Below the pieces are notes generated by a model. That model saw only the letters and a program-made list of their open reading frames with translations. It was not told where the DNA came from and searched no databases. Both the position numbers and the translations under genes were made by a program. Below, piece by piece: positions 2,581 to 59,659 of a DNA stretch of 64,000 nt; within the stretch, counting starts at the first letter, position 1; every line of letters begins with the position of its first letter. Source of the stretch: Schmidtea polychroa (taxonomy: Eukaryota); NCBI GenBank assembly GCA_044892525.1, contig CM097885.1, forward strand, positions 34,598,001 through 34,662,000, read 5' to 3'.

Positions 2581-2966
2581 TAATGTTTAAAATTAAAATT
2601 TTTCAAAAATTAGATCTCAACATTTTTAATATGACTTTTAAATGACTTAATAAATTAATGTGCATAAAGTTTGATAAAAATAATACAATAAATGAGTTAT
2701 AAAATATCTCAGTTGAATGAGAATGTATAATACTTTTCCTTCGGTATAATTTTTCATATAAGATATAGGACCCCCAAAATTCATATAAGTGATTTTTCGT
2801 ACAATATTCGATTAAATAAAGTTAATTCCAAGTGTGAAACTCTTATCTTTATTCGATGTTTACATGTTAATTTATTAAGTCGTAAAAAGTCATATTTTGA
2901 CAATTTTGGAATTTATAATTTTTAAAAATGATCAATTTTTAGAAATGTCTAAATTAGCAAATATTC

Positions 2967-3649
2967 GGTTACATGACATTTAAACATGCGACAGATTAAC
3001 ATGAGACACTTTAACATAGACAGATTAACATGCGACATTTTAACATAGACCCACTTTAATATACGACGGATTAACACACATTTAGAAAATAAAATATTGC
3101 GAGCCTGGAGGGCGAAGCTAATAATACTTCAATGATTTGAAAAACCATTAACCGAAAATTCTTTGTATTTTCTAACTTTATACAATTTTAAAATTGTAAT
3201 TTTGCTGGTAAGTCTACTTAAAAAAATCTGGAGTAAGAACAATACACCTAAAACATTCCAACTTTCGTTCAAATTTTGGTCTCACACCATATAATTTTAT
3301 TTACATTCATATTATTGTTACTTAAAATATATTGTATCATGCAATAGGTACCTATGGACATTTATTTAAGAAATCTTGAAAAATTTAAGAAAATTCGTAT
3401 GTTCAATTCGAGTTGGTAACGTTTTTAAATGCATATATGTAGCAAATTTTAACTTTATTTAGCCTATTATCAATTTCATTTTTATCTTCCAAAATTAAAA
3501 TGTGTGATAATCTGTCGTATGTTAAAGTGTGACCATGTTAAACTGTCACTATGTTAATATGTCACAGTGTTAATCCTTCGTATGTTAAAGTGGGTCTATG
3601 TTAAAGTGTCGCATGTTAAATATGTCGCATGTTTAAATGTCGGCACACC
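2967..3649. mobile_element. Non-autonomous foldback DNA transposon (Mutator/Merlin-like) with tandem-repeat TIRs
   Basis: Termini GGT...ACC. Inverted arrays of ~15-bp units (TTAACATGCGACA) at 2975-3080 and 3510-3642. Perfect 8-bp TSD AAATATTC at 2959-2966 and 3650-3657. Confidence 0.8.
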
Positions 3650-4771
3650 AAATATTCACTAAAATTAATTTAATCAAGCATAAAAATCAATTTTAAGAAA
3701 TTTGAAAATTGAAGTGTCATGTAAAAGCAGGCTCACGTTGATGCCTCGCGTATTCAATTCCAATTCATCCAAAATTAAGGAAGTTTTGCACAAGTATCCT
3801 AAATAATTTAAAGCAAAGTTGAAATTAGAATCTGATGAAACTTTGAAATCTTTCATAAGGGATTTTTTTAAAGATTCTCTTTAAAGTATCTTTAGCTCTT
3901 TGAATCAATTGGTCATCGTTTGCCTTCAGAGTCATTCGGTCGTCTTAAAATTCTTCAGCCGTTTCATGAAGAAATTGAGAGAATTAAGAACTTTGAATTG
4001 GGTAGCCTACCTTTCTAATTGTAGATGAAAGTGAAAAATCTTGATTCAAATATGTCAATTTAATAATTGGAAAATTAAAACTGAACCAGAAACAATATTC
4101 CTTTGAGGTAATTGTTCAACTTATTGATGATGTTATTATTGCGTTTGGTATTTCAATTGGCAACTTCCGGATTCTGCTTGATATATGATTGAAGCTGCAA
4201 ATATATTGCATGAATTATTTCCCATTTTTTGTGTAACTTGCATTGCACCTCTTGCTCATAATTGTGCAATGAAAATAAGTAGGTGATGAAACTGGTTGAG
4301 TCTGCTCGAAATATTATTAGTAAATGGGAAAGTAATAGAATATTGGTGACCAATGCTAAAGAAGCAATTGAATAGCCAAATTTCACTCAGCCTCTTATTG
4401 CAATTTAAGAATGTAATAGCGCTTTATCAACAGTAACTTTCAATATTATAAGAACTTCTTTCTATTTTCACCTTGGATTTCTTTTTAATAAATACAATAA
4501 CTTTCAAATTAGAATCTACATCTTGTTATATTTCGACTGGGTATGGTTTGCTGCAAAGATTTGGACTTTTTCTCTAGCCCGTTTGCGATTGAACAAAAAT
4601 GAAATGCTTGAAATCTATTGTACTAGAACTGAAATTTTTCTATGTTTGCATTTCTTGTTGAAAGAAGTTCAGAGTACATCAAATGCAGTTGAAGAAGCTT
4701 CTAGCAAAGGACCGAAACTACAAACCAGAGAATGTCAAATTTTATTGCAATTCTTCTTTTGATAATAATAA

Positions 4772-5200
4772 GGGGACCCGTTCGAAGCGTGCACATGCAA
4801 TGAAATAAAAATTTGAATGAAATTTTTTTTTTCACATTAATTTCACATTAAAAAAAATAAATATATAACGTTTACAGATATACATAATTGTTACAAATTA
4901 AGATTGTATGCAATTCCTCTCAATATATATCGTATAAAAGATGCTCCTTTTCTTTATTTTCTCCGTGGTTCCAATATAACTTTTGTATAATTTGATCTTT
5001 TCTGATATCAACTTAATTTTTAAACCTAATGATTAAAGTGATATTTATTATTATTTATTTATTAAGTAAATCGATTTTTTGTCTATATGAATACATTGCG
5101 CGCATCTTGTACTCTTATTTCGCGCGCTTTTGTTATTGCACGAATATATCTGTGCGATTTTTTCGACACGTTTTTGTTTGCGCGCTTCGAACGGTGCGCC
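4772..5200. mobile_element. MITE with GC-rich TIRs
   Basis: Left end GGGGACCCGTTCGAAGCGTGCA versus reverse complement of right end GGCGCACCGTTCGAAGCGCGCA. Flanks AATAATAA / AATAATAC give a 7/8 TSD. Confidence 0.7.
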
Positions 5201-7021
5201 AATAATACGATGAATAAAAGTTTAAAGTCATTAAAATCGTATTTTAGTAATGATAAAGTCATATTTTAAGAAGAATAAAGTCATTTTATTGGCAGTCCTA
5301 ATAATATTTAATCATTTGTTAGTGTCTGAGTTTGATTAATGCTTTAAAAAGGTTCTGCTGAAAGTTTATCTATAATTTTGAATCCATCTATCAATCTTCA
5401 CCGAAAAAAACGAAGCGGAAATAAATTGACAAACTTATTTGGATAAGAAAAAATTACACCGTTTAGGTCTATTTTAGAATAATTAATCAAATCATGTTGA
5501 TTAATTGACTAGAAATTACGAAATACTTTTTATTATTCCAATTCCCATGGCTTTTATATTTCTACGTATATTTGTATATTCTGTATTCACTGAATTTCTC
5601 ATGAGACCTGATGAAGTTTCTTATGGGTATTAAATAAATATATTTTATTATTAAGGCTAACAATGTCTTTCTCATTTCGATAATGAAAGAGAATATTCAA
5701 ATACAATAACTAAAATACATTCTTATTTTCTAGTTTGTACAAATTCCGTTTTTGAAAATATTAATTTTATCTTTTTGTTTATCTTCACATTTTTGAATTC
5801 TAGATCAATACTTTGTTTTAATTTAACACGAATTTTCGGAAATGCCAAAAATATAAAGCGAAAATATTTCGATAATTTAAAATGAAATTAAGATAAAGGA
5901 AATTGAAAATATTAAAGGATTAATAATTATTTTATACTATGGCTAAACATTACTTATATTATATTACAAGGTTGTATATTTCTATATTAACATGCATTAA
6001 GACTTTATAAAAGTAATAATCTGGTTGCTTTAAAATATTTATTTATTGGTTATATAAATTCCTTACGTTGCGAGGCTTTCTCGCACTATCTAAGCATATT
6101 TACATAAATATTCAAACATCTTACATTATAATCGTACAGTTAATTACTTTCAAAATAATAACAGTAGACATAAATAGATGCTTTCGGTAAAATATTTCGA
6201 CCTAAAAAACGCTTCTATAAGGTATAATTAAGATTAATAGGGTGGAAGACATTAAAACACAATATTATGTACATTTAATTACATTTGAAAGTTATTAGAA
6301 TGGTGAAACTTTAACATTATTCATTATAAAACCGTATTATGTGAAATTCTACAATATTGGACAAGCTTTTCATATAATAATTCAATAAATAATTAGCTGT
6401 TATAACATTCAGTTTATATGTTTTATTTAATTATCCATTTTCTATCTATTGCATCTAAACAAGTTATATTTGTTTCATGGTTTCCGTATACGGTAAAATA
6501 TGCTGTAAATATACTGTAATAAAAATAATGAACTAGAACGATAAATCAAACTCATGACAAGTAGACAATGTATGCAGTAGCACGTTTACGCATATGCGCG
6601 CGCCTACGGCCCCAATCAAACGAAATGAATTAAAATTTTACAACTGTGAATTTTGACTTTAATGACTTATTGTAAATATAACCCTAACCCATGATTAATG
6701 TACCTAAAACATTTTTGTTGGAATTTTTAATATGCATGTTTTGCAACTTTAACTCTTTAATCTATATTCTCTTTTATTTCTATAACGTTATTTTTGACTA
6801 CTATACTAGTTGGTAAAAAAGTAACAGCGATTCAATTTAAAATTTTTTGAAATGAAACTTGATTTTTATAATATAAACATATTGCATTACAATCATTTTA
6901 ACAACCAAGTTGCTTTTCATGCTTTTTTCACTAAAATCAAATCGAATCACATTCTTTGAAAATAATTTCTATATTTTTAAGATAAACATTACAAACTTTG
7001 TGATACCCAGTGCAAATCCCA

Positions 7022-7063
7022 ATAGTATACTAGTTTCGAGCTTTTAGCTCTCATCAGTACCAC
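7022..7063 (-). ncRNA. Minimal type I hammerhead ribozyme (minus strand)
   Basis: Minus strand reads GUGGUA-CUGAUGA-GAGC-UAAAA-GCUC-GAAA-CUAG-UA^-UACUAU. Conserved CUGAUGA/GAAA core, 4-5 bp stem II, palindromic ACUAGU stem III, GUA cleavage triplet, 6-bp stem I with two G-U pairs. Confidence 0.85.
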
Positions 7064-7335
7064 ATCCGTAAAAAAGTATTTTAATCCATTAAAAGTTAAA
7101 AATGCTAAAGATTTACGGATGCACTTGTAAACAGTTACTGTGTATGACGGTGTCTCCAGAGGCGAATATGATTTTTCATACGCCATGTTTACAAGTTTGG
7201 AGATATTTTTTCTGTGATTTAGCAAATTTGCAAGTGATGTGATTTCCAGTGTAGCAGGTAAAGTATGCAATAGAGTTGAATCAGCAATATTGTATACTTA
7301 CCTGGCGCGACGAGAGAAATTTTCGCGTCTCCTGC

Positions 7336-7377
7336 ATAGTACTGATGAGAGCTAAAAGCTCGAAACTAGTCGACTAT
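7336..7377 (+). ncRNA. Minimal type I hammerhead ribozyme (plus strand)
   Basis: Reads AUAGUA-CUGAUGA(7342-7348)-GAGC-UAAAA-GCUC-GAAA-CUAG-UC^(7371)-GACUAU. GUC triplet; stem I has 5 bp with a G.A mismatch next to the core. Confidence 0.85.
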
Positions 7378-10300
7378 TGGGATTTGCACTGGATATCACA
7401 AAGTTTGTAATGTTTACTTTATTTTATTGTTAGACATCCGTAAAAAAAAATTTAAAAAAAAATATTTTAATTCATTACAAATTATTTTTAAGTCATTGTT
7501 AAAATAACAAAACGGCTTCTATTTCAAATTCGAGTTTTTGGACAACATTTTGCACATAGGCTAAGGCTACACAACAGTAGTCTACTCTAAGTGTAAATGT
7601 TCAAAAGGCCCATAAAAAGATGTGCTACTAGGGTCTCATTTTCGGTAAACACGTCACTGAATATATGTACACCAAATGTGTTTTACTGCACATATACACC
7701 AAAGCTTATAAATTACAATACGTTTAACTAGAAATTAAGGTATTGTATAAGACATAATTAATTTATAAACACTTGCTTGAAATAAGGACAAATATTAAGA
7801 GCATTGACATAAATTACTATATATACTATACACAATAACCCTATAATAAAATACTCTGAGGCAAAAAAAAATCATGGGCAGCAATCATTTATTAAGGAAT
7901 ATTTTTATTATAAAAATAATAAAAATATGCAATTTTGAGGATTTTTCTGGCGTTTTATCACGTTAAAACTTTCCATGAGTAGTAAAGAAGCAAAAGAGAG
8001 TAATGTAACTTATTAATTTTAAAAGGTTCCAACTTAAAACATTTTTAGAAATTCTGGAAATGATAAATTGTCAAAAATTATAAGAAATATAAGAGAAAAG
8101 CATCGAAAAAATTTATATATAATTGAAATATAACATTTAAAGTTAATTATTTTTAATTATTCAGAAATTAATAAAAAAAGAACACAACAAAGAAAATTAC
8201 TGCAATCTCATAAAACAAATTGCCAAAATAATTTCTAATTGAAAACATTTAAATTAAAGTATAACATCTTAATATTGTATTTATTAAAAAGCTTGATTAT
8301 GAATCAGTAAACATATCGATGTTTTTGATATTCACCAATTTTCGGCACTGGCTTTTTCAAGTGAATTATTAAATAAATCTTACCGTTTTCGAAAAATATA
8401 ACATAAATGACATGAAATTTATAATAAATACGAAATTTTAATTTTAATATAATGATTAAAATTATTGCTATAAAATTTGAATATGAAAAGCAAAAGGATG
8501 AGAATGTAAAGATTTTCAATTTTTCATCAGGCCTGCGGCGCACATAGAATATCCACCACTGAAAAACATGTCAATTGTATCTAAAATTCAAATAAATAAA
8601 ATACAATATTTTTCATTGATTTTTTCAAATAAATTTGAAAACCTTTTTTTAAATTGAAAATAATATTTTTTCTTTAATTTAGCTTATTCAAATATAATAC
8701 CGAAAAAAGTAAATAAAAGAATTTCTGCGAAATTGATTTAAGCTTTTTCTAGTTTTTTCGATTAAGTGAGTAAATATAAACTAAAAAATGTAGAAATTTA
8801 AAATTTTTATTTTCTTTCAAATTTAATAATCAGGTTTTTACTAATCGTAGGTCCAAATATTAAAGCTGGACATTATAACTTGTATTCAAATAGTCATTGT
8901 ATAGTAATTGAAGTGCCTCTGACTAGCACTTTTATCAATTTAATAATTGAACTAAAAACATTATGAAAAATGATTAAATTAAAATTAAATTAAAAACGTT
9001 TGTTTAAATAATCTTGTCTTTTTCCAAAAAAAATCATCAACTAGTGTGTGTATTACGTACTCGGTCATTATTCTGTAATCGCAATACCCCCCTTGTATCT
9101 GACGGGCTCACACCCTACTACTACAATGAATTAAACAATGAATTATTTAACTTCGCAATCAACAAATCGAGTCAAAATCAATAAATCAAATATGACAGAA
9201 ATTCAAGAAACAGAAACCTTCGTCTTATTAGCAATAATCTCTCTGATGATGGTCAAGATCTTCAACAATCTCCATACAATCTCCAGATCAAGTGTTCGTG
9301 CTTTCGTCTGTATATTGACTTGGAGAAGATATGACAATTATTTACTGCAATGTTAATTTGAATAAATTCTTTATTCGAATTAATTGTATGTCTCAACAGT
9401 AATGTTTATATTTTAGGATATTTATTATTACAATATTCATTTAGATATCTATTTATAATCTACTAATTTTTTATAAAAGTTTGTTATGATTTTGTTTATC
9501 TTCATTCAACTTTTCGACACTATTAAATAGGAAACAACGTAATTATTTATAATCTGATAGAATGAAGCTAAATCAAGTGAATACAGTCTAAATATTTCGG
9601 ATAACACATTATGACAATTTAAGAAACGTTAATACAAAACATACAGTTAGGAAAAGCGATATGAATTATTTTATATAAGGATGCTTAATGTAAAATATAT
9701 AATAATAAATAAACATAATGTATATCATATGAAAATATTGCAATGCAACACATGTAAAGTATTTTTACATTTTTGCAAAACAATTAATACTTAACAGTGA
9801 ATGCATCCCAATAAAAATTTGTGCCTAAAGTTCAACAACTGATTATTTAAAAATCAAAGTTTAACTTATACAACTTTGAAAATAAAATTGCTTTGGAAAA
9901 AAAGGACAGTTCAAACCCCATCGATGACATTTACACATAGTAAAAGATATCACGGGAAATAAAGTACAGAAATTCATTTCCCTTTGGCATTTATAATGAA
10001 GCTCCGATGGGTCTCTATTGGAATTATTATTACCATAACTGACAGGACACTTTGTTTTACTTAATTTGTTTTGAAAACAAATTCAACATTTTTTAGATTA
10101 ACGTCACTCATCGAAGGAATGTTTATTATATTGAATAAAATATTGTCTATTTTGTGAGGGCTTAATGATAATAATAAAGTAATTTCAAATTTTTGTATTC
10201 TATAGTTTGTGATTTATGTTGGTAGTCATTAAAATGAATTTTATCCAAGCATAATGCACAGAAAATTAACTATAACATTTCCTCGTAACACATATGATCT

Positions 10301-18149: not shown

Positions 18150-18990
18150 GTGCGCTGGTTTGTTTTGACAAGAGGCAAATTACAGAAATTTATTAATGAA
18201 AATGAAAGTCAGCATAATAAATATGCTAGGCCAAGTACAGTAGGCAAGCTACTGTATGGGGTGTTTAATATTCATGTGTGCCATTTTAAGGACGCGGGAA
18301 CAATCATCCATTCTCGTTTTTCTTGTGTTATTGATAGAAGCCCCGTTGATTTTCATATGTTTTTCTGGAGCCTTTAATCACTCTATCTATCATTTTGTTC
18401 TTTATGGGCATGTCTTCTTCATATCTGAGTCCCAATTTTCTGAATACATCATTATTCCGTTTGTCCCATGTTCCGAGGGAACATACCACGAATGTTTCTA
18501 CTGTTGTATATGTGTTTGTTGGTTCTTGGATGTCTTGTGCTAATTTTCTGTATTTGTTTTGGTTTTTTGTTCTTGATGCTTCAATGGTTGGATGGTCATC
18601 AAATGGGCATTTTGCATCTATTATCATTATGTGATCCTTTAATCTGGCTACAATGTCTGGTTTTAACATTTCCATCGCTTCTTTTGGTTTTTTTCTGTTT
18701 CAAAATTGATTCCTTTTTTCCTTGATATTTCTTCCAGTGCTTACTGTTTTCATTTATATGGCCTGATTTTCATCAATTATTCCGGTTAATTTCCTGTTTT
18801 ATATCCACTCTTCTTTATCAACAAGCAATTATTGAAACAATTCTCTTCAAACGATTTACGAAGTTAATCAACTGTCAAATCTTGGTTTTTCACAATGATT
18901 GATGAAATTTTCTTGAATAACAAATGGGATTAATTAACTATTTATTTATCTTTTACCCTTCTTGAGATCTTCCTTCATTTTAAAATTATT
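18150..18990 (-). mobile_element. 5'-truncated non-LTR retrotransposon with restriction-like endonuclease (R2/NeSL/R4 group), decayed
   Basis: ORF 18328-18675 has LKPDIV..IIDAKCPF..K..KY..L..VVCSLGTW, the PD-(D/E)xK REL signature. An upstream remnant ENFINHC resembles the CCHC knuckle. AATAAA on the minus strand at ~18190. Boundaries are approximate. Confidence 0.8.
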
Positions 18991-24149: not shown

Positions 24150-25199
24150 CTATTAAACTATAAAATCTGTAAATTTCAAAACTAATAAAAATTTAAAGCG
24201 TAATAAAATGAGAAAAATCGACAGCCTAGATGACTCAATGGTAATCTATTCAACAAAAATCAATAATAGACACGGTTAAAATCCCAAGTAAAACTATTTT
24301 TTATAAACTAATTTTAATTCTGTTTTAATATAACAACTATTAAGGAAATTTATTTTTTTGTGTCGGAGGATATTTTTAGAAGAAAAAAATCAGGAACAAG
24401 TCTCAAAGGTGAGCTGAAGAAATATTCGATGCGCTGGACAGTAACCTGACATTAATGTCATTATCAAATTTTGTTATATTTAATTTAATGCGATTATTTT
24501 TTTTCATTTTTAAATGGTTGTTTAATTGTTTTATTTTTTCCTTATGAAATTAACAAAAAAAAGTTTATGATATAATTTTCTTTAATGCTGTGAAATATTT
24601 TTTCTGTAATTGAAACTCAAATTTTTCAAAGATTCTCCTCAGTCAGAGAAACTGATGAAATTGTTGTCAATTGGATATGGTTATTTCTAAAATAGGTAAT
24701 TGAATTCGATGAGTGAACATATATTATCCGGGAAAAAATTTAATTTAAAAATATTTGATTAATCAGTGACTGAAATAAAGTTTGTGAATTTTGTTATTAT
24801 TTTTCCGATTATTTTTAAAATATTTTTATTGCTTTCTTGGTAAACTTGACAATTAAAAATTCAAAAAGACAAAAGAATAAAATTTTGTCTAAATGTATCT
24901 AATTATTAAAATTTATTTATAGAATTGAAATTCAATATCAAAAGAATTTACAGGTAAAATAAAACAAAAAATAAAAAATAAAAATAATAAATAAAATAAT
25001 AAATAAATAAAAATAAATAAATAAAAATAATGCCAGTTTTTTTCTCAGTTAATAGTAGGTAGATAGTAGCGCACGGGAACAATTACCCCCCGGGGGGGGG
25101 GGGGGGGGGGGGGGTAAAATTGTTCCAACTTTTTATTACGCAATTGTTCCAACTCACATTTTTTGCTTTCAGGGATTTTTGGTACAAATTTTTTTTTAT

Positions 25200-52537: not shown

Positions 52538-52604
<67 letters not shown>

Positions 52605-53062
52605 TTTGAAGAAAATGTGGTAACATTTGAATGCATTAACTTGGTCACACATGTTTGTAATGATTTTATCCTTTCCTTGCAGTTTCAAATTTAAATCGGA
52701 TAAGTGTTTCGTTATATCAACCATAAAAGATAAATCTTGCCACCACACTGTATCAGAAAACAAGGCGATGTCTTGTTTTTTTGATGTTAAAAACTGACAT
52801 ATTTCGTCTTTCAAATCCCAAAATTGTTTGAAAACCTTGGAGCAGGATAACCAACGTACCTCGGTATAGTACGACAAACCAGAATTTATTTTCGCACCCT
52901 AACTAGATTTTTGGGGTTCGTTTCCTTAATTTTTTGTTTAATGGGCGATAAAAACTAAATGTAACAGTTATAAGAAGTGATTACATAGAAAATTTTATTT
53001 TTAAGTTTTGTTTTATTTTTTTGTACTGATATATCAAGTGGGCCGCAAGTTTGACATATCTG
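52380..53062 (-). mobile_element. hAT (Buster/Charlie/SPIN-type) internal-deletion derivative with a transposase fragment
   Basis: TIRs CAGGGGTCTCAAACT and reverse complement CAGATATGTCAAACT. Perfect 8-bp TSD CTTTAGAA (52372-52379, 53063-53070). Fragment YYTEVRWLS...DLSFMVDITKHLSDLNLKLQG is GTF2IRD2/SPIN-like. Confidence 0.92.
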
Positions 53063-57448: not shown

Positions 57449-59659
57449 CAGTAATACCTCGTACAACGCTCTATATGCGTTCTTGGAAATTGAGCGTAAT
57501 AGAAATCAGCGCTATAGGAGGCAAGAAACTAAACTTTAGGGGTTACATTACTTCTGTGTTAAATAAATACCATTTTTTTCATTTTTTACATTTTTAATCA
57601 ATAAATTGAAGGTACATACATTTATTACTTCAAAATAAAAATATTTCATACTTCTTCAATAAATAAGTTTTCATTATGTAAATTAAATACATATGTATGT
57701 ATCAAAAACATATAAAATAATAACATGAAGAAATTCAAAATAGAAAAACTAAATTAAATTCTACATATTCCGTAAGAAAAACTGGTCTAATTTAGACTGT
57801 TGCCGATTCGATTGTTTCTCTTTTAAAATTTCCGTGTACAGAGTAAGACTTTTTGAAACACCTCTCTTAATAAAACCAGTGCGTTTTTTTGTCAATTTCT
57901 TTGACGGCTCTGCATTTTCATCATGTTCACTTTCGTGGTTTTGGTATGATTCGTCTCCGATTTCGATTAAATCTTCATTGGAAAGGCCTGCATCATGCAA
58001 ATTGATTATCTCTTCTACGTCTTCGTTCATTAGATCGTCGAACCCCACATCATGTGCAATTTGCACTGTTTCCACGATAATGGAGTGTAAGTTATCGGAC
58101 ACTGAATTTTCATTTTCTTTAAGAAGAATTTTATTCCAAACACCTCGCATGGAATCATTTTTAACTTCATTCCAGGAGTCTCTAATAGTTTCAATCGCCA
58201 TCGTGATATTGAAACTTTTCCAAAATTTCAAAATTGTTTCCTTTTGTACATCAACTGCATTTAAAAGTTGCCTGAATGTACGCCGAAGGTAATAGGCTAT
58301 TAAAATTGGCTAATACTCCCGGGTCCATCGGTTGAATCAAAGAAGTCGTATTCGGAGTTAAAAAATAACTTCCATAGGTATGGTTTTTGAAAGCGCGGCT
58401 ATATTTTTTGAATGCCCAGGTGCATTGTCAATTATAAGAGCTCTGGATTCCAGTTTCTTACTCTCGCAATAATCTTTTACTGCCGGGCAGAAATATTTCA
58501 CAAACTATAACTCAAAAATAGCAGCCGTTAGCCAAGCCTGACGATTGGACATCCAAATGACAGGTAAATTATCCTTGGAGTAACCCTTCATTGCCCGAGG
58601 ATTTTCCGACTGATACAGCAACAACAGTTTCAATTTAAAATCATCTGAAGCGTTCCCACCTAATAAAAGGGTAAGCCGATCTTTGGCCGCTTTAAATCCA
58701 GGTGATCGCTTCTCTTCGTTAGAAATAAACGTTTTGGAAGGCATTCTTTTCCAAAATAACCCTGTCTCTTCTACGTTGAATATTAATTCGAGGGGATATT
58801 TTTCTCCGCTATCAACGATTTTAAAGATTTAGTAAAATCTTTCACGGCACCTACATCGGCGCTAGCAGCTTCTCCACAAATTTTATGTTGTGAATATTAG
58901 CACGAACCTTAAATTTCTCGAACCATCCTCGGCTTGCTGCAAACGTTTCTACTGATGAGCTGGTAGAAGGTTCGTAAGAGTTTTGTTTCTCTCTCTCTCT
59001 AACTCTCTCTCTAACTCTTCAAATAAACCTCTTACTTTCTCCATTATGACTGCTTGACTCAATGGCATATCTCTATTATTTTGGTCTTCTATCCAGTAAG
59101 TCAACAGTTTCTCCATTTTTTCAATCATTGTGTTACGCGTTCGAGAGGTCTTTGAAGCTGAAAGTGGTGTTGTTGATTGCACAGATCTTTTAATTTTCTC
59201 AGCATTTTGCAAAATTGTTCTAACAGTTGATCCGGGTAAATTCAATTTACGACATACATCGACTTGACGTTCCCCATTTTCTATTTTTCGAATTACTTTC
59301 AATTTTACATCCATAGATAAATTTCTTCTCGAATTTTTTGTTAAATCTTTCACACTTTCATTCCGATCCGACATTATTGATAAGAAATTATTTAGTTATT
59401 TACAAAAATAAATGGGAACATTTCAACAAGAAACACTGATTAACTGTTTAATTTTTGTTTCTAAAAAAATTCAAATGATTTATGTGAATCCCCAAAATAT
59501 AAACAAAAATGTATGGAAATTTGAAATAAAATAATACAGAAATCAATTTTACTAAATATGTATATGTATTCTTTTTAATGATTTTTTCATATCAAAATTT
59601 TTTTTGAGCGTTATAACGAAATAGCTTTGTAAGAGGGAGCGTTATACGAGGTATTACTG
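57449..59659 (-). mobile_element. Full-length Tigger/pogo-family DNA transposon (2211 bp)
   Basis: TA|CAGTAATACCTCGTACAACGCT ... AGCGTTATACGAGGTATTACTG|TA; 22-bp TIRs match 21/22 with TA TSD. Confidence 0.95.
57761..59374 (-). pseudogene. Tigger/pogo transposase, disrupted by frameshifts and stops
   Basis: Three ORF pieces: a CENP-B-type HTH (58949-59374), the DDE_1 region MPSKTFIS..PGFKAAKDRLTLLLGGNA (58505-58744) followed by DNAPGH and IQPMD, and a C-terminal piece (57761-58231). Confidence 0.92.

Follow-up and report, generated by a model that had tools for sequence, protein, structure and literature searches.

What kind of element leaves two hammerhead ribozymes facing each other on opposite DNA strands? 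We addressed this question in a stretch of 64,000 nucleotides from Schmidtea polychroa (assembly GCA_044892525.1, contig CM097885.1, positions 34,598,001 to 34,662,000 of the forward strand), hereafter the window, which is animal DNA of 25% GC and in which all positions below are counted. At 6983–7450 an original prediction had described a retrozyme-like unit, that is, a non-coding ribozyme retroelement, with two oppositely oriented hammerheads. The hammerhead retroelement stood up to analysis and the pair of ribozymes per unit did not: the unit has one, and the left, opposite hammerhead probably arose as a side product when a Penelope-like enzyme made the insertion. We consider it quite probable that the locus is a slightly decayed insertion of a retrozyme of the type without long terminal repeats (non-LTR), mobilised in trans by an endonuclease-bearing Penelope element and primed twice on one source RNA.

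Arms, unit and ribozyme

BLAST within the window aligns 6983–7060 with 7339–7416 as an inverted repeat (75 of 78 positions identical, E = 3.6e–31; mismatches at 7371/7028, 7372/7027 and 7393/7006), which extends to 83 nt at 94% identity (6978–7060 against 7339–7421). Both arms carry CUGAUGA, a helix II of 4–5 bp, GAAA, a palindromic 6-mer and UH, and the two cores, one per strand, lie where the original prediction had placed them. The 372-nt monomer that it had drawn from a direct repeat at 7062 and 7434 was also recovered, with the spacing of 372; the repeat resumes as 7070–7098 and 7456–7484 past a 14-nt A-rich insertion. With 372 nt, 35% GC and one type I hammerhead, the unit has the size and composition of animal non-LTR retrozymes. 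It has no protein homologue and no Pfam match, and its longest plus-strand stop-to-stop frames encode 45–51 amino acids. A 102-amino-acid minus-strand frame (6989–7297) was rejected as spurious, having no Pfam match and, when trimmed to 7064–7297 (78 amino acids), no homologue. Protein, Pfam and frame searches found no reading frame for a reverse transcriptase with a GIY-YIG endonuclease at the element.

Family variation was taken from sequencing runs. The run search returned 24 runs, 20 of them with part of the stretch (56% of the sampled words in the best) and none on record as RNA. Contigs from four runs (X1, X5, X7 and X11; four studies, two organisms) were mapped on 6600–7900, with runs X8–X10 and X12–X20, which have small word shares, outside the mapping; the family differences are the best-supported 40 of 204 rows, and the joints are 15 of the 116 listed. 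By summed depth, position 7372 is T in 97% (X1) and 99.8% (X5), and 7028 is G in 89% (X1) and 97% (X5), its A being private to the left arm. The majority letter is C at 7353 (95%, 99%), A at 7311 and C at 7321 (85–97%), and C at 7404 (91–94%).

Read in majority letters, the family ribozyme has a perfect helix I of 6 bp and a helix II of 4 bp whose loop counts 5 nt. Its site is GUC, and helix III is a single pair (A-U) closed by a palindromic tetraloop. The core CUGANGA, GAAA, UH and G10.1–C11.1 of a type I hammerhead are all present; a bulged stem rich in wobble pairs extends helix I, and loop 2 starts with C and ends with A in the majority of both organisms, as in the Rfam HH9 consensus. The majority T at 7372 restores helix I, which agrees with the perfect ancestral stem I proposed earlier, and both proposed cleavage positions are correctly placed (Table 1); the proposed ancestral GUA site gives way to GUC, given the majority G at 7028. 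The earlier label of a minimal ribozyme did not hold either. Canonical type I hammerheads have a helix I of 6 bp, a helix II of 4 bp and a helix III of 1–2 bp with a palindromic loop, whereas the minimal hammerheads of Penelope elements have a helix II of 7–8 bp, a helix I of 4–5 bp and an extra base between 9 and 10.1 (PMC4209133; here and below, statements on published systems draw on parts of the cited papers). The family ribozyme has the canonical helix lengths and no extra base after A9. By this model it belongs with the canonical type I hammerheads of animal retrozymes and would depend on dimers.

This copy departs from the family form. In the right-arm hammerhead the first pair of helix I is an A-G mismatch, leaving five of six pairs; the left-arm hammerhead has 3 bp of native helix I, to which the junction adds three more pairs (two of them G-U) by chance. 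Across the whole window, a core scan gave three matches with at least 3 helix II pairs, namely both arms and one with 3 pairs at 24642. Looser core patterns matched one locus in metagenomes, three in viral contigs and eight in prokaryote genomes. Eleven of these 12 have neither helix I nor helix II and are chance matches. A bare core pattern is thus common by chance, whereas both arms here do have the helices. Only the remaining locus (L001) looks like a real hammerhead, with a helix II that, read from the sequence, begins after one extra base. None of the 12 loci gave a blastn alignment with the monomer, and a family-specific pattern had no match in JGI metagenomes. The L001 hammerhead (2501–2540, 2580–2615) is unrelated and has the same palindromic helix III; it lies 3' of a 713-amino-acid frame and is followed by TTAGGG-type repeats. 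By layout alone this suggests a telomere-associated Penelope-like element; the frame has no Pfam match at E 0.1.

Abundance, continuity and fold of the unit

On 6600–7900 we mapped 12,759 (X1), 5,251 (X5), 402 (X7) and 170 (X11) contigs. Summed depth rises at about 6978 and drops after about 7435, with an element-to-flank ratio of 210 (X1), 408 (X5) and 272 (X7) for six unit bins against eighteen flank bins, the flanks being themselves repeated. Runs X7 and X11 may be RNA; as the X7 ratio falls between those of X1 and X5, it carries no message about expression. The thousands of variant contigs, which are no direct copy number, point to a family whose copies number in the hundreds to thousands. 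At 6978, heterogeneous loose ends set in (62 contigs of X1, 49 of X5 and 5 of X7); this position, the mirror of 7421, is therefore the family's usual end. Listed contigs connect 7078–7279, 7106–7289, 7209–7340, 7231–7362 and 7314–7436; since they overlap from 7078 to 7436, the 5' hairpins and the ribozyme belong to one unit. At the locus itself the tail partially repeats the start of the unit, as a partial tandem. Among the listed contig pieces, none reaches across the locus and none shows an empty site.

In the second organism (X11), depth is 2,600–7,300 over both hammerhead arms, 0 at 7084–7171 and 22–36 at 7216–7303. Its best-supported listed changes inside 7336–7377 are three in loop 2 (7353, 7355, 7356) and one that restores helix I (7372). 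The family is young, very abundant and present in this second organism, and the run contigs and the anatomy together support the earlier description of a non-coding hammerhead retroelement present in many copies, whose unit measures 372 nt and whose helix III is of the dimer type. Subfamilies with other hairpins upstream of 7157 and downstream of 7198 appear in 31–39 X1 contigs; a 2-nt deletion at 7311 shortens a hairpin loop, and hairpins are exchanged as modules within the family. The flanks at 6633–6953 and 7480–7900 are lower-copy repeats, so that the element sits inside other repeats.

The monomer (7062–7433) has a minimum free energy (MFE) of –119.4 kcal/mol, with z = –6.8 as a linear and –6.4 as a circular RNA and 68–71% of bases paired (100 dinucleotide shuffles); eight other nearby 372-nt stretches gave z from +2.2 to –2.2. 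The minus strand also folds strongly (z = –6.1 linear, –4.9 circular), hence the fold score alone does not fix the strand. Jointly, 11 listed majority letters lower the MFE of the monomer by 9.8 kcal/mol, against a rise of 8.6 ± 6.2 kcal/mol for type-matched random changes, none of which (0 of 100) matched the observed value. The palindromic helix III can form a self-duplex of –4.8 kcal/mol, the active fold of a single copy costs 8.7 kcal/mol, and in the monomer the fold prediction pairs C3–G5 of the core with the helix III loop. These predictions fit a source RNA that was selected for structure and would be cleaved in multimeric form only. Releasing either core in a transcript across the whole locus would cost 52 kcal/mol. 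Both cores would thus be buried in an arm-arm hairpin of about 80 bp, and this copy, with a lone sense ribozyme and a mismatch beside the cut, would be catalytically dead.

Table 1. Features of the element, by position in the window
Feature	Position	Strand	Details
Candidate target-site duplication, left copy	6972–6981	+	10 bp, 4-nt overlap with the element terminus; same 10-mer at 7483–7492
Left arm: inverted, 5'-truncated copy of the unit's 3' end	6978–7060	–	Inverted-repeat alignment; contig loose ends at 6978
Left-arm hammerhead	7022–7063	–	Core 7057–7051, helix II 7050–7038, GAAA 7037–7034, palindrome 7034–7029
Left-arm hammerhead cleavage site	7028/7027	–	GUA, minority letter
Inversion junction	7061	.	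Single base, in neither piece; read directly from the sequence
Forward copy of the unit	7062–7421	+	Without the first 12 nt; predicted to be a highly self-paired non-coding RNA
Predicted long hairpin	7255–7304	+	7255–7272 with 7288–7304; 3' arm includes the match to the U1 5' end (7294–7306)
10-bp hairpin 5' of the ribozyme	7304–7329	+	Two breaks in this copy; intact with majority letters at 7311 and 7321
Type I hammerhead	7330–7382	+	Helix I 7336–7341/7372–7377, extension 7330–7334/7378–7382, core 7342–7348, helix II 7349–7361, GAAA 7362–7365, palindromic helix III 7365–7370, GUC, cut after 7371
Tail: continuation into the next unit's start	7422–7484	+	12 nt absent from the forward copy, then match to 7062–7098 with 14-nt A-rich expansion
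Candidate target-site duplication, right copy	7483–7492	+	10-mer identical to 6972–6981

Insertion scar and competing explanations

Since cores on opposite strands cannot form a double hammerhead, the opposed hammerheads are no working pair. The arrangement recalls what has been described for Penelope insertions, namely an inverted 5'-truncated copy with a tail of 30–40 bp (PMC8557442) and, for Adineta Pen2/Pen2a, inverted pseudo-LTRs (pLTRs) with duplications of 8–10 bp (PMC3846280); in Schistosoma, opposite-strand hammerheads lie 100–700 bp apart (PMC4209133). Here the left arm begins inside helix I and is joined to the forward copy via one extra base. Minority letters at 7353/7046 and 7404/6995 are common to both arms at positions where the majority stands at 91–99%; for independent copies 3% diverged, the rough chance of this is 3e–4. 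As the arms share private letters, both complementary DNAs (cDNAs) derive from one source, with the reservation that a rare subfamily or conversion between the arms would equally give the shared letters. At the position of the private A at 7092, the tail has retained the majority C. The inverted truncated terminal copy of Penelope type, as first proposed, was found together with the shared minority letters. A 10-bp direct repeat (6972–6981/7483–7492) flanks the element; repeats of at least 10 were reached in 6 of 3000 random pairs of neighbourhood windows.

We propose that tandem source copies would be transcribed as multimers, in which neighbouring hammerheads would pair via the palindromic helix III and cut after GUC, the monomer core being folded shut. 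Monomers may then be ligated into circles or left multimeric. A Penelope-type enzyme would nick both target strands and, using the same source RNA both times, prime two cDNAs. One would pass more than one unit (forward copy and tail), the other would stop after about 80 nt (inverted arm), and the two would be joined head to head.

Several observations weigh against this account. The tail measures 63 nt, or 49 nt without the A-rich expansion, against the published 30–40; the windows for the 10-bp duplication were picked after the repeat had been seen, without an empty site; and the inversion junction has no palindrome, a trait reported as consistent in the part of PMC3846280 used here. At gathering scores Rfam has no match in the window. 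The scan with RF00163 that the original prediction had named as its check gave no match, and the best hammerhead model, HH9, reached 16.8 bits (E = 0.75), far below its cut-off of 52; the gathering score is a cut-off of the library, not a structural feature. Taken singly, only six of the 11 majority letters stabilise the monomer, two (7092, 7372) are neutral, and three (7137, 7259, 7353) destabilise it by 0.6 to 1.6 kcal/mol. As to the tandem source, contigs X7-31 and X11-11 cross the unit end to 7436, which is 15 nt past 7421 where the bridge rule is 31 nt. Among the 15 listed joints of 116 none returns from the unit end to its start, and neither a tandem array of two whole units nor an autonomous partner was seen in the run contigs. 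Nor can cleavage of the family dimer be assumed, because only one of nine Xenopus retrozyme dimers was cleaved in vitro (bioRxiv 2026.07.22.740005).

The best surviving alternative, which we regard as rather unlikely, is that the piece is the 5'-truncated 3' end, or pLTR, of a long protein-coding Penelope-like element. The anatomy of the insertion is the same as for such elements; from the vicinity of the ribozyme (2.7e6) to 7084–7127 (1.0e6) summed depth drops as 5' truncation would give, and some contigs, 31 of them from X1, depart from the window sequence upstream of 7157. However, the sequence past the 3' end comes back after 372 nt to where the same piece began, and neither the short plus-strand frames of the unit nor its 78-amino-acid minus-strand frame offers coding content. 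The hammerhead is canonical, whereas those of animal Penelope elements are mostly minimal (PMC4209133).

A different question is raised by the stretch 7294–7306, which equals positions 1–13 of the Rfam model of U1 small nuclear RNA (snRNA) exactly (13 of 13). A given 13-mer is expected in the unit at about 5.5e–6 by composition, and the matching letters are the majority in the loose ends of X1 (68 contigs) and X5 (55 contigs). One may imagine a retrozyme with a functional piece of the U1 5' end, acquired by template switching as in SINEU, that pairs with 5' splice sites or recruits splicing factors, a proposal that we hold to be very unlikely even though one X11 contig retains U1 positions 3–10. 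The match scores 9.7 bits (E = 0.68) against a cut-off of 69.5 and shows no U1 beyond position 13; the scanned 61-nt stretch was chosen after the match had been seen, and this was the only Rfam match there. Rather than forming the head of the unit, the match lies 230 nt inside it, and its first 11 letters (11 of 11) are predicted to be paired in the 7255–7304 stem, the partner being 7255–7266. The sole informative X11 contig keeps the stem arm 7290–7303, from 4 nt before the match, with changes at U1 positions 2, 11 and 13; on the minus strand, the same letters are equally a consensus splice donor. The match is probably incidental, a coincidence with a stem arm. A retrozyme RNA circle carrying a captured U1 5' end, locked in the stem until refolding frees it for pairing with 5' splice sites of the host, seems to us quite improbable, and we would give similarly little credence to any functional role of the match. 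If true, it would mean a ribozyme-bearing circular RNA parasite wired into splicing, in thousands of copies. A literature search for a U1-bearing retrozyme returned no relevant report. Two related candidates fared poorly. An RNA start at 7294 from an snRNA-type promoter is argued against by the upstream stretch, which pairs with the 3' part of the unit in the predicted fold. A plus-strand splice donor at 7258/7259 would need a T that most of the family lacks (G in 64–68%), and no such joint occurs among the 15 listed.

Finally, an ambisense two-ribozyme element, or a hammerhead-tipped DNA element resembling a miniature inverted-repeat transposable element with 83-bp terminal inverted repeats, would explain the near-perfect inverted arms, the flanking direct repeat and the six helix I pairs that the left ribozyme can make with junction sequence, but it is extremely unlikely given the private letters common to the arms, the left arm cut inside helix I, the low depth of the junction bin (0.41e6, far below its neighbours at 2.7e6 and 0.98e6), the 10 X11 contigs in which the sequence beyond 7060 is what ordinarily lies upstream of the ribozyme, the tail outside the right arm, and an arm pairing that would block both cores.

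Genomic surroundings and relation to known retroelements

On the minus strand, seven tblastn segments (14,475–61,868) mark a gene for a diacylglycerol kinase of the zeta/iota type (rdgA-like), with introns up to about 26 kb; its closest matches are oyster, annelid and ribbon-worm proteins (in a biased set, n = 133). An intronic site for the element was considered and rejected, the element lying about 7 kb past the last coding segment found (at about 14,475). One intron of the kinase gene contains a 21-kb foldback-like structure (about 24,950–46,200) with long inverted arms of nested tandem repeats (26020–28999/44167–41184 at 95%; 28994–32349/41535–38159 at 99%), whose interior holds direct and inverted duplications of 3–4 kb at more than 99% and no frame of note; it could be a foldback element or an assembly artefact. 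Other mobile-element remains are an open 545-amino-acid plus-strand frame at 1–1640, which by eye reads as the RNase H and integrase end of a Ty3/Gypsy pol, and, on the minus strand, a broken Pogo/Tigger-type transposase (57,761–59,395; CENP-B_N, DDE_1). Two further minus-strand fragments were recognised by eye and have no Pfam match: one like a hAT transposase (52,539–52,898) and one like the restriction-like endonuclease of non-LTR elements (18,328–18,699). Within the element, a pyrimidine-rich tract followed by AG at 7411–7434 resembles a splice acceptor and stops precisely at 7433, one base ahead of the direct repeat, which may be chance; the forward copy starts (7062) at the point that matches the end of this tract. 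Penelope introns are reported to abut or span the pLTR boundary (PMC8557442, PMC4209133).

Animal non-LTR retrozymes (Cervera and de la Pena 2020, PMC7229834), such as axolotl Rtz_331/HHR_Amex1 and the 350–390 bp repeats of mussel, resemble this element in unit length (150–450 bp), GC below 50% and very many copies, in a single canonical type I hammerhead with a 1-bp helix III, a palindromic tetraloop and a self-paired RNA, and in lacking an LTR, a primer-binding site or a polypurine tract; they also have a duplication of more than 4 bp, for which there is a candidate here. HHR_Amex1, which has the same helix III design, cleaves poorly alone and well as a dimer (PMC7229834). Unlike those retrozymes, ours is a solo copy rather than an array, is known here from contigs of runs not on record as RNA, has no sequence match made to a described family, and has a clear inverted end with a tail. 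Inverted ends or tails of retrozymes are not described in the portions used here of the main texts of PMC7229834 and bioRxiv 2026.07.22.740005, and a literature search likewise gave nothing relevant. Endonuclease-bearing Penelope insertions (Pen2/Pen2a, PMC3846280; PMC8557442) share the head-to-head inverted 5'-truncated end, the tail at one end, the 8–10 bp duplication (again a candidate here) and a hammerhead near the 3' end; the present locus differs from them in having no reverse transcriptase/GIY-YIG frame, a 372-nt unit, a canonical hammerhead, no junction palindrome and a longer tail. SINEU (Kojima 2015, PMC4494074) is likewise a non-autonomous retroelement with a stretch derived from the U1 5' end; there, a U1/U2 head stands at the 5' end of an element mobilised by Tx1, and no ribozyme is named in the part consulted, whereas here the match is of 13 nt, internal and paired.

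For vertebrates, co-occurrence and pLTR phylogeny have presented retrozymes as non-autonomous Penelope derivatives (Li, Clavereau and Pollet, bioRxiv 10.64898/2026.07.22.740005). The parent-parasite relation proposed there is the same, and solo monomers are common; the present locus differs in offering the anatomy of an insertion site, in an invertebrate and for one copy. A literature search found no record of this 372-nt family, with the supplement of PMC7229834 on invertebrate retrozymes, which may list the family or a relative, outside the search; a motif search in two supplementary files of PMC4209133 gave no match, with one file outside it. The family is thus a new one of an already described kind, animal retrozymes as Penelope derivatives being already in print. 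The proposal that animal retrozymes borrow Penelope enzymes rests mostly on phylogeny, co-occurrence and the ribozymes that both kinds of element share. In the present copy, a unit of retrozyme size that carries a canonical hammerhead lies within a Penelope-type insertion scar. Given a genome, the family would be well suited to a census of such scars and to the search for the partner element, and the result is a useful confirmation for specialists rather than a surprise.

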